Made by a program: the position numbers and the translations under genes. A stretch of 64,000 bases of DNA from Acutalibacteraceae bacterium (GTDB lineage Bacteria > Bacillota > Clostridia > Oscillospirales > Acutalibacteraceae). Position 1 is the first letter of the stretch. Every line of letters begins with the position of its first letter. This document shows positions 13,260-62,875 of the stretch, piece by piece. The notes beneath the pieces were generated by a model. That model made no database searches, had not been told where the DNA came from, and was given only the letters and a program-made list of their open reading frames with translations. The stretch covers positions 21,851-85,850 of the forward strand of contig JAZSAN010000005.1 of the NCBI GenBank assembly GCA_045601885.1, written 5' to 3'.

Positions 13260-13342
13260 TGGTGCGGGTGACAGGACTTGAACCTGCACGAATGCTCACC
13301 AGATCCTAAGTCTGGCGCGTCTGCCAATTCCGCCACACCCGC
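13260..13342 (-). tRNA. tRNA-Leu (anticodon UAG), long variable arm, encoded CCA
   Basis: The reverse complement GCGGGTG..CCAGA-CTTAGGA-TCTGG..GGTTCAAGTCC..CACCCGC-A-CCA folds as a class II cloverleaf. Confidence 0.9.
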
Positions 13343-44602: not shown

Positions 44603-44726
44603 TTAAACATCTCCAAGCAAAAGTTTTCCAAATAATTATTATACTTTAGTGATATATTTTTGTCAAGAAAGCACCGCCATTATACGCAGTTTATTGACAT
44701 TATTTTTATTTGGTTTTATAATAATT

Positions 44727-45722
44727 ATGGTGATTGATGTGAAACACGAATTTTTAATTTCTGCGCCGCCCATAATTCGCGATTTTTTGACCTATAGCGA
44801 GAGCATTCGCGGTAAGTCATCTAATTCCATTGATGAATATTATCACGATTTACAGACCTTTTTTCGCTATATTAAAATGCAAAACGGCTTGGCGCGTGAT
44901 GCAAAATCATTTGAAGAAATTGACATTTCTGATGTAGATATTGCGCTTATTAAAACCGTTACCCTTTCGGATATTTATGCGTTTTTGGTTTATTGTAAAA
45001 ATGAGCGCGATAACAATGCAGCCACAAGAGCCCGAAAAGGCTCGACACTACGCATTTTCTTCAGGTATCTTACATCACATATGCATCTTCTTGAAACTAA
45101 CCCTGCAGAGCTTTTAGAATCACCAAAACTCAAAAAATCTTTGCCAAAACATCTCACGCTTGACGAAAGCAAAAAACTGCTTTCCTGCATTGACGGAAAC
45201 AACAAAGAGCGTGATTTTTGTATTGTCACCTTATTTTTAAACTGTGGAATGCGTCTTTCCGAACTTTGCGGATTAAACCTTACAGACATCGGCTCTGACG
45301 GTTCTTTACGCATACTTGGTAAGGGTAATAAAGAAAGAATTATTTACCTAAACTCTGCATGTGTAGAAGCGCTTGCAGCCTATCTTCCCCACCGACCCGT
45401 TGATAACGTTCCCTTTACCGAAAAGAACGCACTGTTTTTAAGTCGCAATAGAAAAAGAATCAGCAATAAAACAGTTCAGCATCTCGTATATACATATCTT
45501 GAAAAAGCAGGATTTGCCGACCGCGGATTATCTGTTCATAAGCTCCGTCACACCGCAGCAACTCTTATGTATCAACACGGAAATGTTGATATTAGAATTT
45601 TAAAAGACATTTTGGGGCATGCAAATCTTGGAACGACGCAAATTTATACCCACGTTTCTGACGAACAAGTGAAAACCGCATTAGAAGCAAATCCGCTTTC
45701 AAATATTTCACCAAAAAAATAA
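44727..45722 (+). CDS. xerC: Tyrosine recombinase XerC-like
   Basis: RDFLTYSESIRGKSSNSIDEYYHDL, HKLRHTAATLM, LGHANLGTTQIYTHV. The start is at the internal ATG 44727. Confidence 0.8.
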   Translation: MVIDVKHEFLISAPPIIRDFLTYSESIRGKSSNSIDEYYHDLQTFFRYIKMQNGLARDAKSFEEIDISDVDIALIKTVTLSDIYAFLVYCKNERDNNAATRARKGSTLRIFFRYLTSHMHLLETNPAELLESPKLKKSLPKHLTLDESKKLLSCIDGNNKERDFCIVTLFLNCGMRLSELCGLNLTDIGSDGSLRILGKGNKERIIYLNSACVEALAAYLPHRPVDNVPFTEKNALFLSRNRKRISNKTVQHLVYTYLEKAGFADRGLSVHKLRHTAATLMYQHGNVDIRILKDILGHANLGTTQIYTHVSDEQVKTALEANPLSNISPKK

Positions 45723-47463: not shown

Positions 47464-48819
47464 CTAAAATGTTCTCAAACCTTTGGGATAATGGTTTTTG
47501 GCGACCGAATTTACAACCTTTGCGCCGCCCAAAGCACAGCCTTCGACCATCACAACCGCCCAGCCGTTTTGACAATTGCAACTTATTTCTTCGCCGTGAA
47601 GATATTTTTGCAATTGCTCACTATCACTCGAAAGTTCAATTTTCCTCTTGAAATTTTTACCCAAAGACATAAAAAACTGATGGTGAGGCTGAATATAGTT
47701 TTTTCGCACTTCTCCTATTGTAACTCCGCAAGAAAAAGCCATTCCGTCTTTAATTTTAAAATTGGGTGTGAAATATACAGGGTTACCGTTATATATTCTT
47801 ACCTTTTCTTTATCGTAATCCAGCAAAACATCATCCAAAAACTCAAATACTGTATTGTCAATTTTTGTGTCTGCTTCGGCTTTTGCTGACGTAAATGAAA
47901 CGGCAGGATTTGTGTTATGCAAAACCGCCATAAACTGTCCTTCACCTTTTGCCTTGTGCGGATAAAAACGCCTTGCGTAATGGATATTGTTGCATTTGCA
48001 TCCATCAAAAAATACTCCGTCTGAAGTATATTTTCTGACAGATTCCTTCACAGGTACAATTTCAAATTCGGGGTGATTTTGCAAAAATAAGTCAATTACT
48101 TTTTCGTTTTCTTCTAAGGAAAAAGTACAGGTGGCATAAATAATATAACCGTCATTTTTAAGACATTGTACTGCATTTTCTAAAATTTCAGTTTGTCGCT
48201 CTGCACATTTTTTTACATTTTCAAGGTCCCACTCGGTAATTGCGATTTCCTCTTTTCTAAACATACCTTCGCCTGAGCACGGTGCATCAACCATTATCAA
48301 ATCAAAGGTTTCGGAGAAATTTTTTGCTAACTTTTGTGTGTCCATACAGGTTGTAACGGTATTCAAAAGTCCTAGTCTTTCAATATTACCCGTGAGAATT
48401 TTGCAGCGTGAAGGAATAATTTCGTTGGAAACAAGCAAACCGTTTTCGTTTAGTTTATTTTTTATCTGAGTGCTTTTCCCACCGGGCGCGGCGCACATAT
48501 CAAGCACCTTCCACTCAGGGTTTATATCAATACATTCTGCGGGCGCCATAGCGGCAGGTTCTTGAACATAAATCATTCCGGCATGATGGAACGGGTGATT
48601 GCCCACCTTTTCGAAATTTAAATAGTAACCATTTTCAACATAAGGAATTTTTTCGTCAGAAAATATATTAATTTTTTCAAAATCTTCTATCGAAATTTTA
48701 TCCGTATTAACCCTGAACGCTTTCACAGGCGGCATATTTAGCGCTTTTTCATATTCGACATATTCGTCTTTTAAAAGTGTCTTCATTCTTTCGGTAAATT
48801 GTGTTGGCAGCTGTTTCAT
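47464..48819 (-). CDS. rsmF: RsmB/RsmF-family 16S rRNA m5C methyltransferase
   Basis: DMCAAPGGKST and DAPCSGEGMFRK motifs. Confidence 0.85.
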   Translation of the reverse strand: MKQLPTQFTERMKTLLKDEYVEYEKALNMPPVKAFRVNTDKISIEDFEKINIFSDEKIPYVENGYYLNFEKVGNHPFHHAGMIYVQEPAAMAPAECIDINPEWKVLDMCAAPGGKSTQIKNKLNENGLLVSNEIIPSRCKILTGNIERLGLLNTVTTCMDTQKLAKNFSETFDLIMVDAPCSGEGMFRKEEIAITEWDLENVKKCAERQTEILENAVQCLKNDGYIIYATCTFSLEENEKVIDLFLQNHPEFEIVPVKESVRKYTSDGVFFDGCKCNNIHYARRFYPHKAKGEGQFMAVLHNTNPAVSFTSAKAEADTKIDNTVFEFLDDVLLDYDKEKVRIYNGNPVYFTPNFKIKDGMAFSCGVTIGEVRKNYIQPHHQFFMSLGKNFKRKIELSSDSEQLQKYLHGEEISCNCQNGWAVVMVEGCALGGAKVVNSVAKNHYPKGLRTF

Positions 48820-48823
48820 AAAT

Positions 48824-49570
48824 TTAATCCTTCTGATTCATTTCGGTGTTTAACATACACATTGCAACGGCAGTAACAGCGGCAGTTTCGGTACGCAAAA
48901 TTCGTTTTCCGAGCGAGATAACCTTGCCGCCAATTTCCCTCGCAAATTTTATTTCATCTTCATCAAAACCGCCTTCAGAACCTATTAAAATACCAACGGA
49001 TTTGTAGTCTTTCAAACTATCAAGCACCTGCTTTGTTGCCTTCATTCCCTCTTCATTCTCATAAGGAACAATCAACAAATCAAGTTCCCCTGCCATTTTT
49101 AGTGCTTGGTTATAGGCTAAAACATCAAAAACCTTAGGTATGTAATTTCTTTTACTCTGTTTTGCGGCACTTTCGGAAATTGCCTGCCAACGCGCAACCT
49201 TTGATTTCTTTTTCTTGTCATCAAGCTTTACAACGCATCGGCTCATTTCGGTGGGCACAATAGCATATACACCAAGTTCAACCGATTTTTGAATTATTAA
49301 CTCCATTTTGTCGCCCTTCGGAAGACCTTGAAATAAATAAATGTTCAAAGGAAGCTCGGTATTTTGATAATTTTCTTCTATAATCAACGCCGTAACAGTT
49401 TCACTGTCAAAGCCCTCAATTTTGCACAAATCGCTCTTGCCCTCGGTACTGACGAGAAAGGTGTCACCAACATCCATTCGCAATACGTTAATTATATGAT
49501 TATAATCAGCCCCTGTAATGAAATAACGACTGTCAAATTTTTGCGATTTATCAACAAAAAAATTATGCAT
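48824..49570 (-). CDS. rsmE: 16S rRNA (uracil1498-N3)-methyltransferase
   Basis: MHNFFV start, PUA-like N-terminus, and a SPOUT knot (IGSEGGF...LGKRILRTETA). Confidence 0.85.
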   Translation of the reverse strand: MHNFFVDKSQKFDSRYFITGADYNHIINVLRMDVGDTFLVSTEGKSDLCKIEGFDSETVTALIIEENYQNTELPLNIYLFQGLPKGDKMELIIQKSVELGVYAIVPTEMSRCVVKLDDKKKKSKVARWQAISESAAKQSKRNYIPKVFDVLAYNQALKMAGELDLLIVPYENEEGMKATKQVLDSLKDYKSVGILIGSEGGFDEDEIKFAREIGGKVISLGKRILRTETAAVTAVAMCMLNTEMNQKD

Positions 49571-49679
49571 ACAATCACTTCCCTTTTGGCTAATTATAGC
49601 AAAAAACATCTATAAAATCAACACGAATAAAGTTCATATTTATAAACAAAAAAGCAGATATCCCATTGATATCTGCTTT

Positions 49680-49698
49680 TTCTTTGGCGCGCTGAAAG
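49680..49698. repeat. 19-bp direct repeat (copy 1) of the tRNA-Arg 3' end and its flank
   Basis: TTCTTTGGCGCGCTGAAAG is identical to 49846-49864. Confidence 0.8.
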
Positions 49699-49850
49699 AC
49701 GAGCGTTCTTGAAAACAGTCCAGTGGACTGTTTTCATAGCGAGAGTCCCTTCCAAGAAGTCGAGTCAAAGACGATGACTGATTGGCATATATTGAAATTT
49801 TTATCAAACAAAAAAAGAACAGAACATATCTTGCGACACATCCTGTTCTT

Positions 49851-49900
49851 TGGCGCGCTGAAAGGGACTCGAACCCCCGACCCTCTGCTTAGAAGGCAGA
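49851..49900 (-). pseudogene. Displaced 3' fragment of tRNA-Arg(UCU) (anticodon arm to CCA): prophage attachment-site junction
   Basis: The reverse complement reads TCTGC-CTTCTAA-GCAGA-GGGTC-GGGGG-TTCGAGT-CCCTT-TCAGCGC-G-CCA. No acceptor 5' strand or D-arm follows on the 5' side. Confidence 0.75.
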
Positions 49901-49979
49901 TAAGGTTTTTTCTAAGAATGGCTTAACTAAGCCAAAAACAAAGGGTCTAAATTTTATAATACACACATTATACACACAT

Positions 49980-50207
49980 TTACATTAAAACTTGTTTTCC
50001 TTGATTCATTTTTAACCAATGTAAAAGTGCAGTTTTTTCAACTATAAGTTTTGAATTTAACCTTATGCTTGGGAAACCTTTGGTGTTCATAATTTGATAC
50101 GCTTGTTGTTTTCCGCACCTAAAAATTCGTTGTATGTCATTTGTATTATAAATTATAGGTTCATTGTTGTCAATATCTTTCAGCGTTTCATTGAACGCAT
50201 TTTTCAT
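49980..50207 (-). CDS. Excisionase-family (HTH_17-like) DNA-binding protein
   Basis: DIQRIFRCGKQQAYQIMNTKGFPSIRLNSKLIVEKTALLHWL. It is the first gene inside the att junction. Confidence 0.5.
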   Translation of the reverse strand: MKNAFNETLKDIDNNEPIIYNTNDIQRIFRCGKQQAYQIMNTKGFPSIRLNSKLIVEKTALLHWLKMNQGKQVLM

Positions 50208-51313: not shown

Positions 51314-52015
51314 TTATGATTCACACATATCCTTGTAGTTATGATAATCTTCAAATATTTCTTCTAATCGAGGATGCTTACCACAACTACGAGACTTCGA
51401 CTCATTGCAAAATCCGAACTGTTTACCATATTTTTCACACTTGGGTACGAGGTAGTCTGCCAGCAAAGGAATTTCCTTAATGACTGCATCTCTCATTTTT
51501 GTCGCCATTTCACGTATTTCAGTTTGTGCACAGGAACATAAGCGCTCGTTCATAAAATTCATAAGTGAGCGAAGATTCATTTTTACTTCAATTGCAGTAG
51601 TGCAAGCATTGGGCAATATCATGCGAGCATCTTCGTTAGAAATACCGATTTCTTGCAATGATTTATATGCATTTTTAATTTTACGAATCGTCGCACCGTA
51701 AACCTCCCAAGCCTCTTTATTGGTGTATATCTTATCTGGAGTTATATATTCAAATCCGTCTTCACTACAATATCTCTGTGAACGCTGTGCATAACTAGCT
51801 ATTCTATGCCTTACCAACTGATGCGATAACGCTCTACTAACTCCTTCAATATGAAAAGTAAAATCACAAAATTCAGTTACACTTGTGTGTCCTGATTTGA
51901 TGCAACGATTCATAATCTTCCCATCACCAGTTGCTTCGCTATTATAACAATTACTTGCTGCTTCTTCGATAGCAAGTATCGGGTCTTTTGTAATTCTTGT
52001 TAATTCAACTTTCAA
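51314..52015 (-). CDS. thyX: FAD-dependent thymidylate synthase ThyX
   Basis: ThyX signature QLVRHRIASYAQRSQRY. TTG start 7 nt after AAGGAGA. Confidence 0.95.
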   Translation of the reverse strand: MKVELTRITKDPILAIEEAASNCYNSEATGDGKIMNRCIKSGHTSVTEFCDFTFHIEGVSRALSHQLVRHRIASYAQRSQRYCSEDGFEYITPDKIYTNKEAWEVYGATIRKIKNAYKSLQEIGISNEDARMILPNACTTAIEVKMNLRSLMNFMNERLCSCAQTEIREMATKMRDAVIKEIPLLADYLVPKCEKYGKQFGFCNESKSRSCGKHPRLEEIFEDYHNYKDMCES

Positions 52016-52206
52016 TAATCTATCTCCTTAATTCCATAATAATCTTTTGCACAATCTTCGGAACAAAACTTATTTCCGTCATCGTCAGTCCAAATTTCAT
52101 ATTCTTCGTATAAATCTTCTCCACATTTATCACACGTTCCTATTTTATGGTATTCACAATTAGGACACTGTGGATGACAAGGGTATTGTCGGCAAATATC
52201 ACACAT
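52012..52206 (-). CDS. Small Zn-ribbon protein (64 aa)
   Basis: CDICRQYPCHPQCPNC...CDKCG...C..C. It overlaps both neighbouring genes. Confidence 0.5.
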   Translation of the reverse strand: MCDICRQYPCHPQCPNCEYHKIGTCDKCGEDLYEEYEIWTDDDGNKFCSEDCAKDYYGIKEIDY

Positions 52207-52705
52207 CTTCTAATACCACCCATACATTTAATTTTTGCTTATTATATGGCATAGGAGAGTTGTGACAATCAGAAATATAAATATCAAGTTTATTGCCCTT
52301 GATTGCTCCGCCTCTATCTTGAACTGTTCTCCAGCCTATTCCCTCTATGTATATTTTACTTCCCATTGGAAATACAGATGTATCTGCTGCTACAGTAACG
52401 CCTTCTTGAACTTTTGCGCCACTTGCAGTTATGCCATTTGTTTTACCACAGCACTTATAACAACTATCATAATAGGTGATTTCAAATTCTCCGCAGTAAC
52501 CAAATAAATATGCTTTTAACACTTCCATATCGCCATTAAGACGAGCAACTTCTTTAGTTAGTTGATTTATCTCTATTGCTTGGTCTATAATATTATCTTG
52601 TGCAACGCTTAATTCTTTAGAATTATCTATACATAAATTACCGAATATAATTGATAAAAGCAAAGTTGTTGCTATAATTATTGTTTTTATTTTTGAAATA
52701 CTGAT
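52199..52705 (-). CDS. 3D-domain (MltA/YorM/YocH-like) protein with an N-terminal membrane anchor; start probably non-canonical
   Basis: 3D motif VAADTSVFPMGSKIYIEGIGWRTVQDRGGAIKGNKLDIY. The track's TTG start (52663) has no SD and falls inside the hydrophobic helix. AAAGGA-7nt-ATC lies at 52705. Confidence 0.7.
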   Translation of the reverse strand: MSISKIKTIIIATTLLLSIIFGNLCIDNSKELSVAQDNIIDQAIEINQLTKEVARLNGDMEVLKAYLFGYCGEFEITYYDSCYKCCGKTNGITASGAKVQEGVTVAADTSVFPMGSKIYIEGIGWRTVQDRGGAIKGNKLDIYISDCHNSPMPYNKQKLNVWVVLEDV

Positions 52706-52709
52706 ATAA

Positions 52710-54626
52710 TCATCCTTTCATCTTTTCAAATTCTTCTTCGCTAATTATCTTAATGCCGAGTTCTACGGCTTTCTTATATTTACTCGAACCAGACTGTTCA
52801 TTCGTAAGTAAGAAATCTGTCTTTTTAGAAACAGAACTTCCCATTTTTGCACCAAGTCGTTCCAATTCTTCTTGAATAGTTGTGCGAGTATAATAGTTTA
52901 ATGCACCGGTAACAACAACTGTTTTACCTGTAAATGGAGAGTTTACAATCTCTTTCTGTTCATTAGCAATATTTAATTCGTATATAAGTGCTGATATTTC
53001 CATTTGATTTTCTCGTTTCCAACCGAACGTTTGAAAACTTGTAATAACGCTTGGAGTAAAAACAGATGTGTCGCTCATATCTATGTCTAATTCTCCAAAC
53101 TCATTAATTTGACAATACTTAGCAACCTCTTTAGCAGTATTCTTTCCTACCATTGGAATACCAAGAGCACAAATAAATTTAGCCATCGTTGTATTGCGAC
53201 TATCTTGAATGCTCTGCCACAATCTATCCCAAGATTTTTGACCAAAGCCGTCTAACGCAATAATTTCATTCTTATATTGTATCAAACGATAAATATCAGA
53301 AAACTTATTTATCCAACCCTTTAAAATAAACTTTTCAAGCGTTGCTTCAGAGAGGCCTTGGATGTCCATTCCATCTTTTGAAACAAAATGAACAAACTTA
53401 TCAAGTATTTTTGCAGGGCAGTGCTCGTTAAGACAGTGCAAAGTCTCACAACCGTTGCTATTACATATCTTTAATTCTGTTGCGCAAGATGTGCATAAAA
53501 GTGGTCTTTTATACGAATTTGTACGAGTTAAGTTATTAGCAACTTTAGGTATAATGTCATTGGCCTTATACATCTCTATCTCGTCACCAATGCCTAATTC
53601 TAATGATTTAATATAGGAAAGATTGTGTAAAGTAGCCTTTGAGATTGTACTACCGCTTATATCAACTTCGTCAAAGATTGCAATAGGATTTACTAAGCCG
53701 GAACGACTTGTGTTCCATTCAATATCTCTTAGAATAGTTGTTGCAGTCTCGTCGTAGAACTTAAAGGCGAGTTGCCCTCTTAAATGATGACTTGTTGCGC
53801 CAAGAGATTCAAGATAATCTACGTCATCAAAAGATACTACAAGTCCGTCAATAGGGTAACTATACTTATCTGCAATTATCTTAAGGAAGTTAATACTTCT
53901 TTCGTCAAATCTATCAAGACGAGGAACAACCGTGAAACCAAGTGTTTCTAACCAATTAAGTCTTTCGCTGAAGGAATTATTCTCATAACCGCTAACAAGT
54001 TTCCAAGCAACGAATTGAATGTGTCGCTGTGCAGCAATTCCACTATCGAGCTGACGTACAGAGCCACTTACAAGGTTGCGAGGATTTTTATATTTCTCAC
54101 CTTCAGGAAGATTTGCATTTATCTTTTCAAAATCTTCGTATGTAATAATCGCTTCACCGTCAACTACCAAATCACCTCTATACGAAATGGTCTGCGGCAA
54201 GTTTGTGAAAACTAAAGCGTTATGTGTTACATCTTCGCCTTCAGTTCCATTACCACGTGTTTCGGCAGATATTAACTTACCCTCAGAATACTTAACACTA
54301 ATTGTCAATCCGTCCATTTTGAGCATTGTGAGGATAGGTTTGTTTCCAATGAATTTTTGCACTTCATCAATACTCTTGGTCTTATCAAGTGAAAGCATTG
54401 GGTGATTATGTTTTACTTTATTTAATTTATCTACAACATCAAATCCAACTGTCATTGTCGGAGAGTTAGCCAACTTAAAGTTGGTTTCACTCTCCAATTT
54501 TTTTAGCTCATCAAAAAGCTCGTCGTATTCGTAGTCGCTCATAGGTGAATTTGAGTTATTGTAATATTCATTACGAGCATTGTTTAAAAGCTCGGTTAAT
54601 TCTTTTATTCTGTTTATCTTTTCCGT
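52710..54626 (-). CDS. NAD-dependent DNA ligase (LigA-type), element-encoded; start probably non-canonical
   Basis: KMDG adenylation motif, OB fold, Zn finger (CTSCATEL...C..C), HhH and BRCT. Ia-domain homology continues 29 codons upstream of the first ATG (54542). Confidence 0.85.
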   Translation of the reverse strand, partial: TEKINRIKELTELLNNARNEYYNNSNSPMSDYEYDELFDELKKLESETNFKLANSPTMTVGFDVVDKLNKVKHNHPMLSLDKTKSIDEVQKFIGNKPILTMLKMDGLTISVKYSEGKLISAETRGNGTEGEDVTHNALVFTNLPQTISYRGDLVVDGEAIITYEDFEKINANLPEGEKYKNPRNLVSGSVRQLDSGIAAQRHIQFVAWKLVSGYENNSFSERLNWLETLGFTVVPRLDRFDERSINFLKIIADKYSYPIDGLVVSFDDVDYLESLGATSHHLRGQLAFKFYDETATTILRDIEWNTSRSGLVNPIAIFDEVDISGSTISKATLHNLSYIKSLELGIGDEIEMYKANDIIPKVANNLTRTNSYKRPLLCTSCATELKICNSNGCETLHCLNEHCPAKILDKFVHFVSKDGMDIQGLSEATLEKFILKGWINKFSDIYRLIQYKNEIIALDGFGQKSWDRLWQSIQDSRNTTMAKFICALGIPMVGKNTAKEVAKYCQINEFGELDIDMSDTSVFTPSVITSFQTFGWKRENQMEISALIYELNIANEQKEIVNSPFTGKTVVVTGALNYYTRTTIQEELERLGAKMGSSVSKKTDFLLTNEQSGSSKYKKAVELGIKIISEEEFEKMKG

Positions 54627-54629
54627 ATT

Positions 54630-56867
54630 TTAATCTCCTAACTGTGTCCATGTATTTCGTCTATTATGGCTTGTTCTAATACAAGTTGAAAATGCTTGAG
54701 GTTCTGCTAATAACAGACATCTCTTTTTTGCTCTGGTTAACAATGTGTAAAGCATACAGTTGTCAAGCAATTTGTAATGAGTATTATCTATAATACCGAT
54801 AACTGTTTGTTTTCCGGCACCTTGTAACTTATGTACTGTCATAGCATAAGCAAGGTCAAGTTGTTCTAATTCTTTTAATTGATATGTAATCTTTTTATTT
54901 TCTGCGAACTTAACATCACAACATTTTGTCTTGCCATTTTCATATATATCAGTTACATATCCTATTTCGCCATTAAAAACATTTTTGTCGTAATCATTAA
55001 CCGTTTGCATTACCTTGGCACCAACTCTAAACTCGGTATCGTTGAGTTTAATAAATCGTGTTTCATCAGGTAATAACTTGTTTTGAATCACTTTGTTTAA
55101 TTCTGATGTACTATTTAAACAATCCTTTTTTCGAGGAACGGCTATTACTACATTGTCTATACCGTCTGTTTCGATTGATTTTAAATATGTATTAACGGCT
55201 ATTTTAAATAACTGTTCTCTGTTATTTCTAAACATATAATACATATCTTGTAATTCCCCGTGAATGATTTTAGGTTGTGCATTTTCGGTGACTGGATTTA
55301 CATTTTCTCTAATGCGATTTGCGTCCGATAATATACCCGATTTAGCCGCCTGTCGCATTGGTTTTGTCAAGTTGTTTACACATTCTTTGTTTAATATATC
55401 TATTAAATCAGAGAATGTATTGCCATATCCTATTGGTGGTAACTGTTTGTGGTCGCCAGATACAATAAATCTTGTGTTTTTACTAAGAGCTTTAACTAAT
55501 GCCAAGAATAAACTTGAACTTACCATAGAACCCTCATCAAGAAAAACAACGTTTGAATATATAGGATTATCTTCGTTAAAAGTAAATTTACCCTCGCCTT
55601 GACAACCCAACATTCTATGTATTGTACTTGCCGAGAAACCAGTTGCTTCTGTAATTCTTTGTGAAGCCATGGCGCTCAAAGCACAAGCAGATATTGAATA
55701 ATTGTTCATTTGATATGCTTTAAGCACAGCTCTCATAATACTACTTTTACCCGTACCGGCCTTGCCAGTGATAAAGCTTACAGTGTTTTGTAAGGTTTTA
55801 TAGATTACCTTTCGTTGTTCTGGCACATATTCAAAACCTTGCTCTTCTTCGGCTACTTTAATAGCATTCTCAATTTGTTCGTCCGTGAATGAAATGTTGC
55901 TGATTTGCTTACTTTTATCAATTAAAAGTCTGTGTATTTTATTTTCAACATTGTAATAATGTTTTAGACCAACTTTTCCGTCCTCGCAATGTAAAAAAGA
56001 ATCGGAAGCAAAAAGTCTGTCCATATGTTCCATGCACTGCGGAACATTGTTGCTGATTGCACTTTTTAATATACTCTCAGACACCCAAGTGTGTCCTTCA
56101 CCGTCGCCAAGTTCACTCAAATAATATCTTGTAAAAGCAACTAAACGCTCCAAAGAATTGTATAATTCAGGTTTAAGCTTCATTGCTAAATCATCAATCT
56201 TTTTAAAACCCAATCCGCTAATTTTTGTCATTATATAAGGATTGTCTAAAAGTTGTTGCTTAAGCAATGCTGCATTCGGTTCTTCGTTTTGCAGTTTTTT
56301 AATCATTGCAAATGTAACACCAAGAGGTTTGAGCATTACAATAATATCTGACATTATATAGTTGTCAAAAATCTTTTCTTTAATTCTATTCCAAGTAAAA
56401 GCCTGAACGCCTTTTACTTTACTGTAGTCAATTTCGTCAACCTTACCACTTACTACGTCTTCAACGATATTTGGGTATGCGGCAAGTAAATTGTTAGCAA
56501 CGTCTTCAGATATTAACGACTTTAAATAAATCATTTGCGATTCTTTGCTTTGAGGAATTAGTGCAGTGATTGAAATCGGTTCGTATTGCCAACCAAAACG
56601 ATTATCTTTTTTAAGTCTACATTTTAGTCCATATTGACCACCGATTTGTAATCTTTGCATCTTTCCAGAAAGAGTGCTTATTTTATCAGTTCTTGTTTTA
56701 TCAGCTTCGTCAAAAGGATTTAAAGATGGTTGAACACCTACCGGCATTTCATCTGCATTACCTGAGAATTGATAAACACCCCAACAAGTATCGTCGCTAT
56801 AATATCTTTCATCAACGATTGTTATTTTTAATTCATAAACTATATCTGTATCAAAATTCTCGATTAT
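54630..56867 (-). CDS. RecD2/Dda-like SF1B helicase; start probably non-canonical
   Basis: GKAGTGKS, VVFLDEGSMV, SGDHKQLPPIG, AMTVHKLQGAG, LYTLLTRAKK. The frame is open for 46 codons upstream of the ATG at 56747. Confidence 0.8.
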   Translation of the reverse strand: MIENFDTDIVYELKITIVDERYYSDDTCWGVYQFSGNADEMPVGVQPSLNPFDEADKTRTDKISTLSGKMQRLQIGGQYGLKCRLKKDNRFGWQYEPISITALIPQSKESQMIYLKSLISEDVANNLLAAYPNIVEDVVSGKVDEIDYSKVKGVQAFTWNRIKEKIFDNYIMSDIIVMLKPLGVTFAMIKKLQNEEPNAALLKQQLLDNPYIMTKISGLGFKKIDDLAMKLKPELYNSLERLVAFTRYYLSELGDGEGHTWVSESILKSAISNNVPQCMEHMDRLFASDSFLHCEDGKVGLKHYYNVENKIHRLLIDKSKQISNISFTDEQIENAIKVAEEEQGFEYVPEQRKVIYKTLQNTVSFITGKAGTGKSSIMRAVLKAYQMNNYSISACALSAMASQRITEATGFSASTIHRMLGCQGEGKFTFNEDNPIYSNVVFLDEGSMVSSSLFLALVKALSKNTRFIVSGDHKQLPPIGYGNTFSDLIDILNKECVNNLTKPMRQAAKSGILSDANRIRENVNPVTENAQPKIIHGELQDMYYMFRNNREQLFKIAVNTYLKSIETDGIDNVVIAVPRKKDCLNSTSELNKVIQNKLLPDETRFIKLNDTEFRVGAKVMQTVNDYDKNVFNGEIGYVTDIYENGKTKCCDVKFAENKKITYQLKELEQLDLAYAMTVHKLQGAGKQTVIGIIDNTHYKLLDNCMLYTLLTRAKKRCLLLAEPQAFSTCIRTSHNRRNTWTQLGD

Positions 56868-59800
56868 ATAAGCACTCCTTTCTGCTTAGTTTGTTGTAAC
56901 CATACCTCGTAAGGCTTTAATTTTTCTAACACTACCCTATCTTCGTTATCTTTTTTAACCAATAGAGCAAGTTGCTGACCAGTCTTAACCATATCTTCAT
57001 ATTCTTTTAATTTTGAATGCCATACAATACATTCAATTAATCCAAAGGAAGAATAGATATTCATAAACGCAAATTGTTTTTTATTTTTATCTTTCTTCTT
57101 TTGTACCTTTGCTACAATGCCAACAATAGTACACTTATTGCCAATTTCAACTTCGCTAAAAGGTTCTAAGTATTCATAAGCTTTGTCAAATGGGTTATTG
57201 TTAAGGAATATTTGCAAACTTTCAAATTCCCAGAACTCTTCGTTTCTTAAATATTTGTCAAAGCACTCCGATTGAAACGCCTTAAGTTTTTCTTGTTCGT
57301 TAATTTCAAAGTTTTGTAATCGCACTTTGTTGTAATCTGTAAGTAAGCGTTCCTTATCGACCTTTTTGCCATCTCTATAATCGTCAACATTTAATCCAAA
57401 TGCTTCAAGTTTACTATACGGTGACGGAACGGAAGAGACAGGTTTAAAATTTCCCTTAGTATAGGTTGACATTAAATATTTCATTAACGCCTTCTTTTTA
57501 TCCTTACAGGGTATTGCTCCAGATTTAATTAACGAAATGATTTGCGTCTTCTTTGGATTTACTCTGTCTATAAAGTCTTGCATTGAAGCGAAATTGCAAT
57601 TTCTGTTATTTAAAATTTCTGTAGCAAAGTTTTCTCCAATACCTTTTATTGCCGATAATCCAAATAAAATTGCTTCATTATTAATTGAAAAATTCATTTG
57701 CGATTTGTTAATATTAGGTGGTAGAACTTTAACTTCAAATTGTTTTGCATCTAAGATATATTTATTAAGCATTCCTGCTTTATCTTTATTAAGGTTAAAT
57801 AATGCCTTAAAGAAGTACATAGGATAATATGTTTTTAAGAATGCAGTTTGGAAGCATATTACGGCGTAACTGAAGGAATGCGATTTGTTAAATAGATATC
57901 CACCTTTTTGAGATAGGTCATCACTAATCATTTTTGCAATTTCTTCACTATATCCGTTATCAATAATCTCTTGATATAACTTTGCCGATTCTTCCTTAAC
58001 CAACTCAATATTCTTTTTACCGATTGCTTTACGGAAAAGGTCGGCACCACCATAACTTCGTCCACCAAATGTACGAACAACATCAAGCAACTGTTCTTGA
58101 TAAATCATACAACCATATGTAGACTTTAAAATAGGTTCCATATCAGGATGAATGTACTTGACTTTACTTGGGTCGTGTTTACATTCTATATATTCTTCAA
58201 GTGCACCCATAGAATCGGGACGATATAGAGCAAGGACTGCCGATAAATCTTCAAGAGAATTTGCTTGAAGTCTGATTAACAAATCTTTCATACCGGCACT
58301 TTCCACTTGGAATACACCATTGGTTAGCGCTTTGTTGAGTAACTCGTATGATTTAGTATCATTCTCAAAAACAGGATTGTTAATATTAATATCGTACTCG
58401 TCGATATTAAGGTCTGTCTGAATTTCCTTAATCATATTTAGGGTTTGTACACCCAAAATATCGAATTTAATAATGCCTATTTCTTCAATAATTCTCTTAT
58501 CAACTTGAATAACGTGTTCGCCATCTCCGCCGAGTTTCATAGCCATATAGTCATTAATATCGGTATCAACAATGCCTACACCACCAGAGTGACAAGAAAC
58601 AGTTTTAATTCTTCCGCTTAATTTACTTGCTATATCAAACAATTCTGCGTACTGAGGATGTTCTGCAACAAATTTTTCATTATTTTCAAGACACTCAGCA
58701 AATGTATCGTAAGAAAATCTCTTGCTCAATTTGTCCATTTCGTTGTAATTAAAGCCAAGAACCTTTCCAACGTCTTTAATTGCAACGACAGGTGTGATAT
58801 ATGAAAAGTTAATTATCTGACAAACACGATTTTCGCCATACTTATTAATTAAATAGTTAATAACCGTTTCTCTATCAGATACATCTGTGTCAGTGTCCGG
58901 CATTGAAATTCTTTCTGGATTTAAGAAACGCTCAAAAATCAGACCGTACTTAATTGGGTCAAGGTCGGTAATATGCAAACTGTAGCAAACTAAACTTCCT
59001 GCACAACTGCCTCTGCCCGGCGCAACCATAATATTTTTTGACCTTGCAAAGTTAATAAAATCCCAAACAATCAAAAAGTATCCGTCAAAGCCCATAGTAT
59101 GAATGGTTTCTAATTCGTAGTTAATTCTTTCTCTATAAATCTCTTGCTTTTCTTTAGGAAATTTATCAAAACCGCGCTCTACCCAACCCTCGTTAACGAG
59201 ATGTTTTAAATATGTATAGTTATCATTAAAACCTTCAGGTAGCGGAAAAGTAGGCAACTTAGGGCTTTGAAACGGCATATTTACCTCTTCAATCATATCG
59301 GCAATAATATTTGTATTTGCCAAACCGACATCAACATTTTCTTTGCCGATTTGATTGTCCATAATGTCGTGAATTTCTTCTTCGCTTTGCAAATAACAAC
59401 CTTCATATGTTTCGCTCATTGTTTCTGAATCGTGAGCGATTTGTACGTGCCTTGCCTGATAATATAAATCTTCTTTTGTAGCAGCATGGCTATCAGTTGT
59501 AATGATATAAGGAGTATCAGTAGCTTTTGAAAGATGAAGAATCTTTTGATTATATATTTCTTGGTCAATGTGATTATGGCTCTGCATTTCTAAATAGAAA
59601 TAAGGAAATATTGATTTGTATTCATTGATATATTCAATACACTTATTCAAATCGCTTTCTCTTGCTATTTTAGAAGCTAAACAAGCTGAAGAAACAATAA
59701 GATTGTTTGCATAAGGTGCAAAGTCACTTAGCTGAACACGAGGCTTGTAATAAAAGCCTTCCAAATTAGATTTAGTAACTAATTTATTGATTGCTTTTCT

Positions 59801-60082
59801 TCCCTCTTCGTTCTTTGCGAGAACAACTAAGTGAAAATACTTACTCTCCTTATCCTTAATTTCAGTATCAAAGCATTCATAAAACTCAACACCATAAATC
59901 ATTTTGATATCTGGGTAATCTTTTTTAATCTTATCAAAATAGCACCATGAATACTCATTTCCGTGCTCTGTGATAGCAAAGGCCTTAAGGCCTATTTTTT
60001 TTGCTTGTTCTAAATACTCTTTTGGAGTTGCATAACCATCTAATAAACTGTAATGTGAGTGGTTGTGTAACGCACTATACAA
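56864..60082 (-). CDS. dnaE: DNA polymerase III alpha subunit, DnaE-type (element-encoded)
   Basis: PHP domain (HNHSHYSLLDG), catalytic GRGSCAGSLVCY...PDTDTDV, and a C-terminal OB region. TTG start. Confidence 0.95.
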   Translation of the reverse strand: MYSALHNHSHYSLLDGYATPKEYLEQAKKIGLKAFAITEHGNEYSWCYFDKIKKDYPDIKMIYGVEFYECFDTEIKDKESKYFHLVVLAKNEEGRKAINKLVTKSNLEGFYYKPRVQLSDFAPYANNLIVSSACLASKIARESDLNKCIEYINEYKSIFPYFYLEMQSHNHIDQEIYNQKILHLSKATDTPYIITTDSHAATKEDLYYQARHVQIAHDSETMSETYEGCYLQSEEEIHDIMDNQIGKENVDVGLANTNIIADMIEEVNMPFQSPKLPTFPLPEGFNDNYTYLKHLVNEGWVERGFDKFPKEKQEIYRERINYELETIHTMGFDGYFLIVWDFINFARSKNIMVAPGRGSCAGSLVCYSLHITDLDPIKYGLIFERFLNPERISMPDTDTDVSDRETVINYLINKYGENRVCQIINFSYITPVVAIKDVGKVLGFNYNEMDKLSKRFSYDTFAECLENNEKFVAEHPQYAELFDIASKLSGRIKTVSCHSGGVGIVDTDINDYMAMKLGGDGEHVIQVDKRIIEEIGIIKFDILGVQTLNMIKEIQTDLNIDEYDININNPVFENDTKSYELLNKALTNGVFQVESAGMKDLLIRLQANSLEDLSAVLALYRPDSMGALEEYIECKHDPSKVKYIHPDMEPILKSTYGCMIYQEQLLDVVRTFGGRSYGGADLFRKAIGKKNIELVKEESAKLYQEIIDNGYSEEIAKMISDDLSQKGGYLFNKSHSFSYAVICFQTAFLKTYYPMYFFKALFNLNKDKAGMLNKYILDAKQFEVKVLPPNINKSQMNFSINNEAILFGLSAIKGIGENFATEILNNRNCNFASMQDFIDRVNPKKTQIISLIKSGAIPCKDKKKALMKYLMSTYTKGNFKPVSSVPSPYSKLEAFGLNVDDYRDGKKVDKERLLTDYNKVRLQNFEINEQEKLKAFQSECFDKYLRNEEFWEFESLQIFLNNNPFDKAYEYLEPFSEVEIGNKCTIVGIVAKVQKKKDKNKKQFAFMNIYSSFGLIECIVWHSKLKEYEDMVKTGQQLALLVKKDNEDRVVLEKLKPYEVWLQQTKQKGVLI

Positions 60083-60086
60083 TTAA

Positions 60087-61847
60087 TCACCATCCTGCTT
60101 CTTCATCATCTTCAGTATCTTCGTCAGTACCCTCTTTAGTACCATTAAAATTAATATCTTTAATATTTACTTGAATCGTTCTTACACCATTAAAATCGTT
60201 GATTTTAGGTTCACCCACCAAGTCAAACATAACAATTTCATTATCGTCCCAACAGTTGTCAAACCATTTTAATAGCTCATTTGCGCCAAATATAATAAAC
60301 TCAATATCATTAAAAGAGAATTGCAATGTATCAGCATTTTTTCCTTTGACTGCAAAATCTTGTTTTCTTAACTCTATGTTTTCAATCGCTATTAAAGGTG
60401 TATCAATGCCTTTAGCCACAATATTTTCTAACTGTGCCATTTCATTAATTAAAACAAAATCAACATCATTCATATCTTTAATGAAATCAACACGGTATGT
60501 AGTGTCATAAATAACGTCTTTTAATCTTTCATTAAGTTCTTGAATGCCATTTTCTACATTATCAGCGTTAATACTTATTCCGGCAGCATTAGGATGTCCC
60601 ATACAGTAATTAAAACTTGGACACGAGTTGATAATGTCTTTAAAACTATCTATAGGACTATTATCAAAGTTTCTCATACTACCACCAAAAACCTTTGTAT
60701 CATCATCGGTTTTCATTTCCTTTAATAAAATACAAGGTTTATTAAAGTGTTCAGCAACTTTAATGGCTACTACGCCAGTTAATCCTTCATCTAAAATTGT
60801 TGTAACATCTGCGACAACAACCTTGTTTTCTGGGTTTTGTTGACCAAGAACTTCGATAATTTTTGCAATACCACTTTTACGACTGTTATCTTGACGTGAT
60901 TTTGCGTTTTTACTTATCCTTGCCGCACGGTCAAAAATATTCTCTTTTATCGTTTCGGTTTGACCACGTTTTTTGTAATCGAACTCTTCATAGTCCCCTA
61001 TCATTGCTCTAAAAACAAGTTCTTTATCTTCGTCCGAACCGATACGAATCATACCATTAAGGACTGGGGTTAAATACCATTGGACATTATGTATGTTAAT
61101 TTTGCCTTTTATACTAAATTCTTGTGCTTTAATTAAAGCCTTTAAGAAATCATTTTGAATATTACTCAAGCCTTTATCAACAATATGTTTTGTCTCATAC
61201 GAACGCATATCCATATCGTCCGAAATGTTTGCCCAAGCACATAAGTCCAAAAACTCGTCAGCATATTCAACCCAAAATTCACTATCTAAAGCAAGTAAAA
61301 ATTTATATACAATTCCTGCGCCGGAGAAATCTTTATTTTCATATTTTTCGCTTGTTTGATTGTTTACAATAATTGCATTAGGGTTATTAAATTCTTTTTC
61401 GTGATGGTCAAGAATTATAATGTCTATTCCCTGTTCTTTTATTTTCTTACATTGTTCGTAATCATTAGTAGATGCATCGGGAATGATGAGCAATTTGGTA
61501 TCTTCAGGGATAATAACGTCTTCGCTTAAACCGTGCGCCTTTGCTTTTTTATGCAGTATATAAGAGACTGGATAATCGCTATCAAGCTTTTTAATATACA
61601 GATACATCATTGCTGCCGAACAATATCCGTCCACGTCAGAATCTACTAAAATTGCAATAGGAGATTTGTTGTTAAAATGCTTTGCAAAACATTCTACTGC
61701 AACATTCATATTTGAAAGCAAACTGTAATTAATAATTTCACTATCTGAAAGGTTTAAATATCTATTTACATCCTTGATACCACGATTTTCTAAAACTCGT
61801 ATCTTAACATTTGCATTATTTGAATTTTTATATAATTTATATTTCAA
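60087..61847 (-). CDS. DHH/DHHA1 phosphoesterase (RecJ-like exonuclease, SPbeta YorK-like) with an acidic C-terminal tail
   Basis: DSDVDGYCS, IILDHHE, DHHA1 GHPNAAG, and the tail ...TDEDTEDDEEAGW. TTG start. Confidence 0.8.
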   Translation of the reverse strand: MKYKLYKNSNNANVKIRVLENRGIKDVNRYLNLSDSEIINYSLLSNMNVAVECFAKHFNNKSPIAILVDSDVDGYCSAAMMYLYIKKLDSDYPVSYILHKKAKAHGLSEDVIIPEDTKLLIIPDASTNDYEQCKKIKEQGIDIIILDHHEKEFNNPNAIIVNNQTSEKYENKDFSGAGIVYKFLLALDSEFWVEYADEFLDLCAWANISDDMDMRSYETKHIVDKGLSNIQNDFLKALIKAQEFSIKGKINIHNVQWYLTPVLNGMIRIGSDEDKELVFRAMIGDYEEFDYKKRGQTETIKENIFDRAARISKNAKSRQDNSRKSGIAKIIEVLGQQNPENKVVVADVTTILDEGLTGVVAIKVAEHFNKPCILLKEMKTDDDTKVFGGSMRNFDNSPIDSFKDIINSCPSFNYCMGHPNAAGISINADNVENGIQELNERLKDVIYDTTYRVDFIKDMNDVDFVLINEMAQLENIVAKGIDTPLIAIENIELRKQDFAVKGKNADTLQFSFNDIEFIIFGANELLKWFDNCWDDNEIVMFDLVGEPKINDFNGVRTIQVNIKDINFNGTKEGTDEDTEDDEEAGW

Positions 61848-61855
61848 TTAATCAC

Positions 61856-62875
61856 CTATCTTAATTTGTAAATATTCTTATTAACTAAATGCTCCCATTT
61901 TTCATAATTATCTGACGGAGATTCTTTTTCATTCAAGATGTTATCTTCGTCAAATATATAATAAAGAGGAATTGTATCAGGAAATCTGTCTGCCAAAGCT
62001 TCCATTTTTTCTTTGTCAATATCTTTATCCATACAAAGAACAATATCTACGCCCAATCTGACAAGCATTGCGATTTGAATGTCAGAAAGTTTTGCACCAC
62101 CTGTGGCTACACAGTTTCTTGTATTGCGTGACCAACTTTGCATAACGCTTTTTTCTGCTTCGAAGACATAAACACGATTTGCATTTTTTATGTATGGAAG
62201 TGTTTTATTTAGTCCGTATAATACTTTGCCCTTAGCGACTGGCTCAAGATATATGTATTTCATTTCATTATCATCAAGTTGCTCTTTAAACAATCTACCT
62301 TTAACTCCCACTAAATCGCCTATTTCAGAATATATGGGAATTGTTATCCGATTACTAAATTCGTCATATGCTATGTCAAAATCTTTCTGAGTTTCGTATG
62401 ATATGCCATCGTCATTAAACATATCATTAACGAATGGCTTGTAATAATTTAATATTGACTTATCTATTGGCTTTAATGGTTCGTCATCCTCATTATCTGC
62501 CGAGCTTGACATTTTATTAAGCATTTCAAGTATTTTAAAACTTTTAGGGACATTCTCGTAAAAATCATGGTAATAAGAAATTCCTATTTGTTCACATATA
62601 TACTTGATACCTTCAGGAAAATCGGTGTTATTTATAAAACAAACCAAGTCTATTAAATCAGAATTTCTGTTTTTGGCAGGTAAGTTTCTTGTATAGTTAA
62701 TCGTGTAAAGATATTCATTTTCATATACGCAAATGGCCGTAACATTGTCACCGTCCGGATTAGCACATTGATAAAAACCATTTTTGTGCTTAATGTGATG
62801 ACAATTCAGCGATTCAAGTATTAACTGGATATAATTGTTGTCCAGAATGTATTTTTTCAAGCTGATTATATCCAT
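61856..62875 (-). CDS. DnaG-type (TOPRIM) DNA primase
   Basis: RITIPIYSEIGDLVGVKGR...KYIYL...LYGL...VYVFEAEKSVM...LCMDKD. Confidence 0.8.
   Translation of the reverse strand: MDIISLKKYILDNNYIQLILESLNCHHIKHKNGFYQCANPDGDNVTAICVYENEYLYTINYTRNLPAKNRNSDLIDLVCFINNTDFPEGIKYICEQIGISYYHDFYENVPKSFKILEMLNKMSSSADNEDDEPLKPIDKSILNYYKPFVNDMFNDDGISYETQKDFDIAYDEFSNRITIPIYSEIGDLVGVKGRLFKEQLDDNEMKYIYLEPVAKGKVLYGLNKTLPYIKNANRVYVFEAEKSVMQSWSRNTRNCVATGGAKLSDIQIAMLVRLGVDIVLCMDKDIDKEKMEALADRFPDTIPLYYIFDEDNILNEKESPSDNYEKWEHLVNKNIYKLR

Follow-up and report, generated by a model that had tools for sequence, protein, structure and literature searches.

Three consecutive genes of a Clostridia prophage probably start at conserved near-cognate codons behind Shine-Dalgarno sequences

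Three consecutive genes of a prophage of a gut bacterium, which code for a RecD2-like helicase, an NAD+-dependent DNA ligase and a 3D-domain protein, probably start at near-cognate codons placed behind Shine-Dalgarno (SD) sequences. In the best reading, to which we give a probability of roughly 70%, the SD directs fMet-tRNA initiation to these weak codons, probably with the aid of coupling to the upstream gene, and with low expression as the outcome. The window (the whole stretch of DNA analysed, 64,000 nt) contains, from about 49.9 kb to beyond 64 kb, a prophage replication and nucleotide-metabolism operon in a Clostridia host, and close relatives were found in MAGs labelled Acutalibacteraceae; metagenome assemblies are the sole source for the host. 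The three genes follow PolIII-alpha on the minus strand in the order helicase, ligase, 3D (Table 1). Host genes begin at 49609, and the long minus-strand operon ends at the terminator-like hairpin, near the boundary between prophage and host. No strong internal terminator was found on the coding strand, where the only hit, in the ligase gene, is a weak one of 6 pairs, and promoter-like hits are not enriched.

Table 1. Positions in the window of the three genes, their initiation signals and flanking features.
Feature	Position	Strand	Details
Terminator-like hairpin	49814..49851	minus	strong, 17-pair stem; after last prophage gene
3D-domain protein CDS, re-defined	52199..52705	minus	168 aa; Pfam 3D domain
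3D protein, proposed start ATC	52703..52705	minus	7 nt after SD (tgattat); 4 nt after ligase TGA (52712-52710)
3D gene SD, AAAGGA	52713..52718	minus	within last ligase codons (M-K-G-stop)
NAD+-dependent DNA ligase CDS, re-defined	52710..54626	minus	638 aa
Ligase, proposed start ACG	54624..54626	minus	7 nt after SD; 3 nt after helicase TAA (54632-54630)
Ligase SD, AGGAGA	54634..54639	minus	made by last helicase codons (Q-L-G-D-stop)
RecD2-like helicase CDS, re-defined	54630..56867	minus	745 aa counted from ATA; homologues cover extension
Helicase, start candidate 2, ATC	56862..56864	minus	10 nt after AAGGAG
Helicase, start candidate 1, ATA	56865..56867	minus	7 nt after AAGGAG
Helicase SD, AAAGGAG	56875..56881	minus	within 3' end of PolIII-alpha gene
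PolIII-alpha gene	56864..60082	minus	1072 aa, TTG start; Pfam PHP, DNA_pol3_alpha, finger and HHH_6 domains

A scan of every long ORF of the window, on either strand, looked for genes in which the 12 codons next to the in-frame stop offer no canonical start and a near-cognate codon follows an SD of 5 nt or more. Only the helicase, ligase and 3D genes were flagged, and none of the about 45 genes in the 49 kb of host DNA. The class IIA near-cognates (ATA, ATC, ATT, ACG, CTG) account for 9.4% of the codons in the three genes. Retention of ACG and ATC is not explained by codon preference, because both are the rarest synonymous codons here (9.5% of Thr and 13.6% of Ile codons, respectively).

At each of the three junctions the SD lies within the upstream ORF, with stop-to-start distances of -4 or -1 nt for the helicase, +3 nt for the ligase and +4 nt for the 3D gene. 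In the helicase start region, which is overlapped by the PolIII-alpha stop TAA (56866-56864), the hexamer AAGGAG (56880-56875) is followed by tgcttat and ATA; together with the stop, this ATA forms ATAA and the next codon, ATC, forms TAATC (TAATA in L150), one-base variants of the common ATGA (-4) and TAATG (-1) overlaps. At the ligase junction AGGAGA is followed by ttaaaat and ACG. The initial annotation had placed all three codons exactly 7 nt after the SD, which is true of the hexamers it chose; with the aligned GGAGG end as the reference point, the distances become 5, 7 and 6 nt. The spacing of 4-7 nt that it gave for neighbouring genes had to be widened to 3-9 nt for neighbours with canonical starts.

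An in-frame stop closes each frame 1-6 codons ahead of the near-cognate codon. The helicase frame is closed by a TAA six codons upstream of the ATA, which makes AERSAY-I-I the sole codons available before the conserved N-terminus; the helicase TAA lies in the ligase frame two codons upstream of the ACG, with only N-T before the conserved N-terminus; and a TGA four codons upstream of the ATC leaves KDDY-I in the 3D gene. The first canonical codons are found 40 codons (ATG 56747, no usable SD), 28 codons (ATG 54542, no SD) and 14 codons (TTG 52663, no SD) downstream of the respective near-cognate codons, and they are the starts used in public gene calls, where the proteins have 705, 610 and 154 aa. 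The truncated helicase call is common to an 80-member cluster (90% identity).

The residues lost in these calls are coding and conserved, and no canonical codon is available for them; that the genuine N-termini lie upstream of the first canonical codons had been proposed initially. Homologues with canonical starts begin at, or 1-2 residues from, the proposed near-cognate codons, and cellular RecD2 homologues begin at most two residues from the helicase ATA. Ahead of the called Met, the helicase extension has five near-invariant residues (Y29, W35, G36, V37 and F40). The ligase extension aligns to residues 6-34 of the solved LigA structures 3jsl, 4glw and 1tae, and domain Ia ahead of the adenylation domain is present only with the ACG-initiated extension (alignment to 6-76 of 3jsl and 4glw); a match to Nlig-Ia (residues 6-58), likewise seen only with the extension, is weak (E 0.0012) and below the Pfam cutoff. 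Ligase homologues with canonical starts open with MxKI[ND][RK]IKEL, exactly aligned to ACG-EKINRIKEL of the window. Met-initiated peptides predicted from the near-cognate starts include M-EKINRIK... and M-(I)ENFDTDIVYELK. The 3D protein begins with Lys residues followed by a hydrophobic segment, and its reading frame and N-terminal pattern are conserved among relatives. Over the 40 codons of the helicase extension, comparison with the relative L079 gives 13 synonymous against 8 non-synonymous changes, and over the 28 codons of the ligase extension 8 against 1, indicating that both extensions are under purifying selection.

The non-canonical state is retained at the ligase, 3D and helicase sites in more than 25 independently assembled relatives, which come from NCBI MAGs, ENA, Logan and JGI. 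The metagenome scan contributed only three close loci, and a megablast search of the phage collection with a 10 kb query gave no match. Because the IMG/VR relatives are distant (at most 47% identity) and all have canonical starts, they are useful only for placing the N-termini. Among the close relatives, the SD and the near-cognate state are both conserved, with codon changes only from one near-cognate to another.

For the helicase, the SD is kept in L071-73, L079-83, L114 and L150 and weakened to AAAGGGG in L148. The ATA, which the initial annotation took as the start, is unchanged in 10 relatives, and the whole site reads ATA-ATC everywhere except in L150, where it reads CTA-ATA; the second codon (56864) is thus the sole position that is near-cognate in every relative. 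Since L150 reads CTA-ATA, the helicase may start at either ATA 56867 or ATC 56864. What stands of the original proposal is a near-cognate codon behind the SD, with ATC as possible as ATA.

In the ligase gene, relatives have ACG or ATA at exactly the same position, on at least six spacer haplotypes (AAT, ACT or ATT before the codon; TAA or TAG as the stop), and the aligned position is ATG in P0042, P0063 and P0071. The block CAGTTAGGAGA-TAA upstream of the ligase is retained even with an HD/ExoX-like gene as the upstream neighbour. ATG, GTG and TTG starts (the last behind AAGGAGG) are restricted to relatives in which the ligase no longer lies at the junction and another gene stands in its place (L069, L078 and L148, respectively); the inserted ORF has taken over the old ATA or ACG site, which precedes the first canonical codon of that ORF by 76 and 30 codons. 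ATG in orthologues had been named initially as an observation that would speak against near-cognate starts. Canonical codons were found only in such rearranged relatives, and for this reason they do not refute the claim.

At the 3D start site, 20 relative loci have ATC, and L079 and L080 have ATT, while the identity of the downstream protein falls to 37-51%. The SD is AAAGGA in all relatives examined except the same two, which have GAAGGGA. In a sister clade of 3D proteins, a change of TGA to TGG has opened the frame to an ATG further upstream, and therefore this N-terminus is not tied to ATC in every lineage.

These results, including the same near-cognate states in so many independent assemblies, support the proposal of a near-cognate start behind an SD in each gene. 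We infer from them the initiating codons themselves, the level of expression and the contribution of coupling. Ordinary fMet-tRNA would initiate the helicase, ligase and 3D genes at AUA or AUC, ACG and AUC, respectively, with a strong SD at optimal spacing presenting each codon to the P site of the 30S subunit. Near-cognate start codons are proofread by IF3 and so give only a fraction of AUG-level initiation. Such starts would act as a built-in attenuation that keeps the output of the three proteins low relative to their neighbours, and this output could be sensitive to IF3 activity. Of the options listed by the initial annotation, deliberate low-level expression is the best fit; in the same operon, RecJ, PolIII-alpha and ThyX start with TTG.

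Ribosomes terminating at the adjoining upstream stop would probably add initiation through re-initiation. The geometry of all three sites agrees with this second option of the initial annotation, and it is retained where the upstream gene has been exchanged. However, relatives carry further near-cognate starts, among them those of a PD-(D/E)XK nuclease (ATC), an HNH/AP2-like gene (ATA) and an HNH endonuclease gene inside a PolIII-alpha insertion (ATA), and the nearest upstream stop is 32 nt from the PD-(D/E)XK ATC and about 200 nt from the HNH ATA. With these uncoupled starts, coupling is not obligatory in the family. A more distant ligase (L149) is tightly coupled (TAATG) yet starts with ATG, and we rejected a strict requirement of coupling for near-cognate use on both grounds. 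For the same two reasons, the functional role of coupling is one that we infer.

Against the proposed ligase start it counts that ACG initiates very poorly in E. coli, and to our knowledge no natural bacterial ACG start is established; a literature search for such starts returned nothing relevant. Among the genetic-code tables that deal with alternative initiators (11 and 4), NCBI table 11 includes ATA, ATC, ATT and CTG as rare initiators and does not list ACG, so that ATA and ATC of the prophage are formally allowed and ACG is not; automated callers placed no start at any of them, and all three proteins came out truncated. E. coli infC and pcnB have AUU starts that are discriminated by IF3, and, as proposed here, a class IIA near-cognate start limits or regulates their expression. 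Unlike infC, which is autoregulated by its own product, the prophage genes give no hint of a feedback loop, and they encode phage replication and cell-wall enzymes. The infC junction with thrS (UAA GGU AUU, +3 spacing; PMC3592434) matches the helicase-ligase junction (UAA AAU ACG) in its geometry. In E. coli, initiation at AUA, AUC, AUU and CUG reaches 1-2% of that at AUG, and at the remaining 57 non-canonical codons, ACG included, 0.1-1% (bioRxiv 10.1101/063800). Conserved AUA and AUU starts placed behind extended SDs reach 10-30% of AUG in S. aureus and B. subtilis (infC, ccpN and citZ with AUA and cvfC1 with AUU in S. aureus; PMC13009471). The prophage sites share with these Firmicute starts the strong SD, the optimal spacing, the conserved non-canonical state, the interpretation as attenuation and a Firmicute host. 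They differ in belonging to a prophage, in occupying three consecutive genes (and more in relatives), in adjoining an upstream stop at all three sites, in including ACG, which is absent from the documented examples, and in being recognized from sequence alone. The SD inside the upstream ORF and the tight packing of the operon resemble known termination-reinitiation coupling (PMC6728339, PMC12548453); here, in contrast, the restart codon is non-canonical, and other near-cognate starts of the family are not beside a stop. Because AUA and AUU starts behind strong SDs are documented in Firmicutes, we class the prophage starts under this known type, of which they are a new and unusually dense case, with ACG as its rarest element.

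Near-cognate starts were seen in relatives at four genes beyond the three, and the phage family uses ATA, ATC, ATT or ACG as the start of seven or more different genes over about 14 kb. In a further reading, AUA, AUC, AUU and ACG would form a regular, selected class of start codons across the replication module, acting as a translational switch in at least seven genes, with homing endonucleases hijacking the near-cognate sites. The output of such a switch could depend on host initiation proofreading (the level or activity of IF3) or on a phage-encoded modifier. We regard this extension of the SD-directed reading as unlikely; if it were true, ACG would be a natural bacterial initiation codon.

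The density of near-cognate starts in the family is unusual and, with some of them uncoupled, could also point to a global or conditional relaxation of start-codon selection by the host lineage or by a phage product, such as a modifier of the ribosome or an antagonist of IF3, in which case the starts would not be weak. Relaxation encoded by the element, the third option of the initial annotation, gains neither support nor contradiction from the data. A general relaxation seems improbable as well, given that no such start occurs in the about 45 host genes of the window and that most phage genes of the operon begin with ATG or TTG. No special initiator or suppressor tRNA was found in the window, where the only tRNA is a tRNA-Leu in the host part (13260-13342), and no candidate factor was identified. 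Moreover, the efficiency reported for strong Firmicute SDs at AUA and AUU is reached with no special factor (PMC13009471).

That the downstream canonical codons chosen by gene finders are the real starts, with the upstream frames as untranslated remnants, is very unlikely. They are the first canonical codons of their frames, but none has an SD, and the extensions, in which synonymous changes outnumber non-synonymous ones, hold half of ligase domain Ia, the WGV..F motif of the helicase and the charged-plus-hydrophobic N-terminus of the 3D protein. In addition, the first canonical codon of the 3D gene moves among relatives, lying anywhere from 12 to 72 codons downstream.

Recoding would turn the extensions into C-terminal continuations of the upstream protein, and the products into fusion proteins, through read-through of the TAA between helicase and ligase or frameshifting at the PolIII-alpha/helicase and ligase/3D junctions. 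The constant presence of the helicase TAA in the ligase frame, seen in every relative, would allow the former, and ATATAA at the PolIII-alpha/helicase junction of the window could in principle permit a +2 slip; we nevertheless hold recoding to be highly improbable. The slip was rejected because ATATA is not conserved (TTTATAA in L079, ATCTAATA in L150). Read-through was rejected because the stop (TAA or TAG, then A) has a variable next codon and no known read-through context, and because the same ligase junction stands behind unrelated upstream genes (helicase, HD/ExoX or HNH ORF). Stand-alone ligase and helicase genes with canonical starts exist in relatives, and read-through does not explain a conserved SD at initiation spacing. 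The junctions have no match to an Rfam element and no stable RNA structure that would sequester the SD or start (folding z-scores of -0.5, +0.3 and -1.1 in 120-nt windows). Finally, a sequencing or assembly error at the three codons, an alternative raised by the initial annotation for which only the prior rarity of non-canonical starts speaks, is ruled out by identical non-canonical states in more than 25 contigs from independent projects that differ by many linked substitutions.

Initiation by fMet-tRNA at SD-presented near-cognate codons would be a clean case of non-canonical initiation in a Firmicute prophage, backed by comparative genomics, and it provides a candidate natural ACG start. 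Standard gene callers systematically truncate the helicase, the ligase and the 3D protein, by 40, 28 and 14 residues, respectively. The shortened ligase is missing half of domain Ia, which binds NAD+, and this has consequences for annotation, structure prediction and the cloning of the enzyme. One junction shows ACG, ATA, ATG, GTG and TTG; together with the ATAA and TAATA variants and the capture of sites by homing endonucleases, this makes up a natural allelic series, suited to tests of the joint effect that start-codon strength, SD strength and termination-reinitiation have on expression within an operon.

The three genes belong to a single tightly packed minus-strand operon, which spans 49,980 through the end of the window, in the order DnaB-like gene, primase, RecJ (TTG), PolIII-alpha (TTG), RecD2-like helicase, NAD+-dependent ligase (LigA), 3D-domain protein, 64-aa ORF, ThyX (TTG), dNMP kinase, NT5C and an HTH_17/excisionase-like gene. 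A terminator hairpin follows the operon (see table); the only other minus-strand terminator-like match is a weak 6-pair hairpin within the ligase gene. Host chromosome occupies positions 1 to about 49.6 kb (rsmE, rsmF, typA/bipA, the SipL sporulation protein gene, an EamA transporter and others), and the prophage-host boundary falls within 49610-49980. In relatives, integrase, holin and endolysin genes, or host genes directly, come after this module, which identifies the element as a temperate phage; the nearest genome records are MAGs bearing the label Acutalibacteraceae. The host part also holds an integrase-like gene surrounded by host genes, and a single tRNA-Leu, separated from the prophage end by about 36 kb and unrelated to the near-cognate starts.

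We scanned all long ORFs on both strands of the window for genes with no canonical codon (ATG, GTG or TTG) within 12 codons of the in-frame stop and with a class IIA near-cognate (one-mismatch) codon behind a Shine-Dalgarno sequence (SD) of at least 5 nt. Exactly three genes were flagged, those for helicase, ligase and 3D protein, in agreement with the initial annotation, which had placed near-cognate codons behind SDs at these consecutive genes. The near-cognate codon follows the in-frame stop by 6, 2 and 4 codons, respectively, and the first canonical codons lie 40 (ATG 56747), 28 (ATG 54542) and 14 (TTG 52663) codons downstream, none of the three with a usable SD. Near-cognates make up 9.4% of the codons of these genes; within them ACG encodes 9.5% of Thr and ATC 13.6% of Ile, each the least used codon for its amino acid. 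For the helicase, either ATA 56867 or ATC 56864 could serve as the start. A relaxed start-codon selection, host-based or phage-induced, is an unlikely explanation, since no near-cognate start is seen in about 45 host genes of the window, and ATG or TTG begins most of the phage genes.

Selected features (L numbers, DNA loci of relatives; other coordinates, window)
Feature	Coordinates or loci	Strand	Sequence or context
Terminator hairpin, 17-pair	49851-49814	minus	3' of operon
Last phage gene, HTH_17/excisionase-like	49980-50207	minus	operon
Host rsmE	48824-49609		beyond 17-pair hairpin
Host rsmF	47464-48819		after rsmE
Integrase-like gene	44649-45722	plus	host part
tRNA-Leu (anticodon TAG)	13260-13342	minus	host part
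PolIII-alpha/helicase junction	stop TAA 56866-56864, ATA 56867-56865	minus	AAAGGAG-TGCTTAT-ATA-ATC-GAG; overlap ATAA
Helicase/ligase junction	stop 54632-54630, ACG 54626-54624	minus	CAG-TTA-GGA-GAT-TAA-AAT-ACG-GAA-AAG
Ligase/3D junction	stop 52712-52710, ATC 52705-52703	minus	ATG-AAA-GGA-TGA-TTAT-ATC-AGT
RecJ and PolIII-alpha starts	60082-60095, 61847-61860	minus	GGTGATTAA-TTG in both
ThyX start	52012-52015		TTGA overlap with 64-aa ORF
Putative ligase start ACG	window, L024-26, L074-77, L079/80, L150, L151
Putative ligase start ATA	L071-73, L081-83, L114, L147
Putative 3D start	20 loci; L079/80		ATC; ATT
Putative helicase start	ten loci; L150		ATA-ATC; CTA-ATA
Displaced ligase	L069/70		ATG, 19 nt downstream of HNH gene
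Displaced ligase	L078		GTG behind GGGGTGA
Displaced ligase	L148		TTG behind AAGGAGG
PD-(D/E)XK nuclease	L024:421-1521, L025/L026:313-1413, L074:226-1326		ATC 8 nt after AGGAGG; first canonical codon as far as 78 codons downstream
HNH endonuclease	within PolIII-alpha insertion		ATA 8 nt after AAGGAG
HNH/AP2-like gene	relatives		ATA start
Homing-endonuclease-type insertions	L148:3175-4008; L078:624-1430; L069:5250-5981; L074:7827-8627; L069/L076 thyX region

Homologue alignments and substitution counts bear out the suspected N-terminal coding sequence upstream of the canonical codons, and indicate that all three extensions are translated. Ligase relatives with canonical starts (52-79% identity) begin MQKIDKIKEL, MIDKINRIKEL, MHKNRIKEL or MNKINRIKEL where the window ligase reads (ACG)-EKINRIKEL, and more distant viral homologues start 2-7 residues ahead of the (EK)INRIKEL-type motif. 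The ligase extension aligns to residues 6-34 (domain Ia) of the S. aureus, S. pneumoniae and E. faecalis LigA structures, and a weak Pfam Nlig-Ia match is seen only when it is included. A Tyr-His pair of LigA is reportedly needed for reaction with NAD+; we take the YY in NEYY of the extension to be its counterpart, so the 610-aa ligase lacking it should be defective. Cellular RecD2 homologues of about 64% identity cover the helicase extension, their Met starts align within 2 residues of the ATA, and Y29, W35, G36, V37 and F40, all upstream of the called Met, are near-invariant. The 3D extension contributes Lys residues and an 18-20-residue hydrophobic segment; its frame and pattern are kept despite sequence divergence, while the first canonical codon lies anywhere from 12 to 72 codons downstream. 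Against L079, the most divergent close relative and our reference for these counts, the helicase extension has 13 synonymous and 8 non-synonymous changes and the ligase extension 8 and 1. Both this selection and the functional content of the extensions contradict the downstream canonical codons as the real starts, which we consider quite improbable. In public annotation of this contig and its relatives, helicase, ligase and 3D protein are called at 705, 610 and 154 aa rather than 745, 638 and 168 aa. In a sister clade of 3D proteins (P0278, P0291, P0294, P0309, P0289, P0277), TGG or an Arg codon stands in place of the in-frame TGA. As read from the proteins, the ORF then reaches back 7-11 codons to an ATG (MKRWKDDYISI...) and overlaps the 3' end of the ligase gene, which apparently gives the same N-terminus by a different, canonical route.

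Rearranged relatives bear on the junctions themselves. Where another gene separates the ligase from the old junction, the ligase starts at a canonical codon behind an SD of its own. The inserted ORFs of L148 (LAGLIDADG-type) and L078 take the old site as their start, an ATA or ACG located 7 nt after AGGAGA and 76 and 30 codons before their own first canonical codon. The block CAGTTAGGAGATTAA plus start stays with the ligase even when an HD/ExoX-like gene replaces the helicase upstream. A read-through or frameshift fusion with the upstream protein is very unlikely: junction motifs are not conserved, upstream genes are exchangeable and stand-alone homologues exist. Homing-endonuclease-type genes (LAGLIDADG, HNH_3, HNH/AP2-like, SegE GIY-YIG) are inserted at or near gene junctions of the module in various relatives; two capture the resident ACG or ATA start with the first ligase codons, and one is fused to the last 11 ligase codons. 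PolIII-alpha, uninterrupted in the window (56864-60082, 1072 aa), is split into 396-aa and 624-aa parts in L071-L073 and L079-L083 by an insertion of about 1 kb (e.g. L071:823-1802), which resembles an intron or a mobile insertion and carries an apparently ATA-started HNH_3 ORF. In L151:5780-5900 (GCA_052849335.1) the 3D gene is lost, the ligase C-terminal tail differs and the 64-aa ORF comes directly after.

The near-cognate state is kept at intact junctions across more than 25 independently assembled loci (NCBI, ENA, Logan, JGI), as the orthologue comparison proposed in the initial annotation reveals; this excludes the sequencing or assembly error that it had raised, the chance of which is negligible. 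Around the ligase start the preceding codon (AAT/ACT/ATT) and the stop (TAA/TAG) vary, and the ACT background carries both ACG and ATA; a two-step change between these would most simply pass through ATG. The 3D ATC is kept in L074/75 despite an inserted HNH-type ORF fused to the last 11 ligase codons. CTA-ATA in L150 changes the ATAA junction to TAATA; ATAA and TAATA (in the window, TAATC) each differ by one base from ATGA and TAATG, respectively, the two commonest coupled overlaps, and a more distant ligase (L149) is coupled as TAATG and uses ATG. No lineage among the loci compared has reverted to ATG at an intact junction, from which we infer selection keeping the starts weak, not mere tolerance.

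The simplest mechanism would be ordinary initiation with fMet-tRNA at class IIA near-cognate codons, to which the SD directs 30S subunits or 70S ribosomes. No stable RNA structure was found at the three junctions, no Rfam element, and no special tRNA in the window. The suggested coupling or re-initiation fits the geometry: a stop lies 0-4 nt from all three starts, and ribosomes terminating there probably reinforce initiation. Run on relatives, the ORF scan yields further near-cognate starts, in a PD-(D/E)XK nuclease, an HNH endonuclease and an HNH/AP2-like gene (see table). The nearest upstream stop is 32 nt from the PD-(D/E)XK ATC and about 200 nt from the HNH ATA, so tight coupling is no general requirement. 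The PD-(D/E)XK frame in L024-L026 is open for 78 codons up to the first canonical codon, TTG, and gene callers cut this nuclease short; a homologue in this prophage, if present, lies past the window end. The TTG starts of RecJ, PolIII-alpha and ThyX fit a general design for modest translation; at the first two, the preceding gene's stop (TAG or TGA) lies inside the SD.

In E. coli, AUA, AUC and AUU give 1-2% of AUG, and the remaining 57 non-canonical codons, ACG among them, 0.1-1% (bioRxiv 10.1101/063800); with extended SDs, AUA and AUU reach 10-30% in S. aureus (PMC13009471). The genes here share the sequence-level defining features of SD-directed near-cognate starts. The closest known cases are Firmicute infC, ccpN, cvfC1 and citZ (AUA/AUU behind strong SDs, conserved there), together with infC and pcnB of E. 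coli; in the latter species the thrS-infC junction UAA GGU AUU (PMC3592434) has the same +3 geometry as UAA AAU ACG between helicase and ligase. New here are the occurrence in a prophage replication operon, the density of putative near-cognate starts (three consecutive genes, at least seven in the family), a candidate ACG start codon and an evolutionary series at one junction, including site capture by homing endonucleases. The practical consequence is that public gene calls shorten all three proteins.
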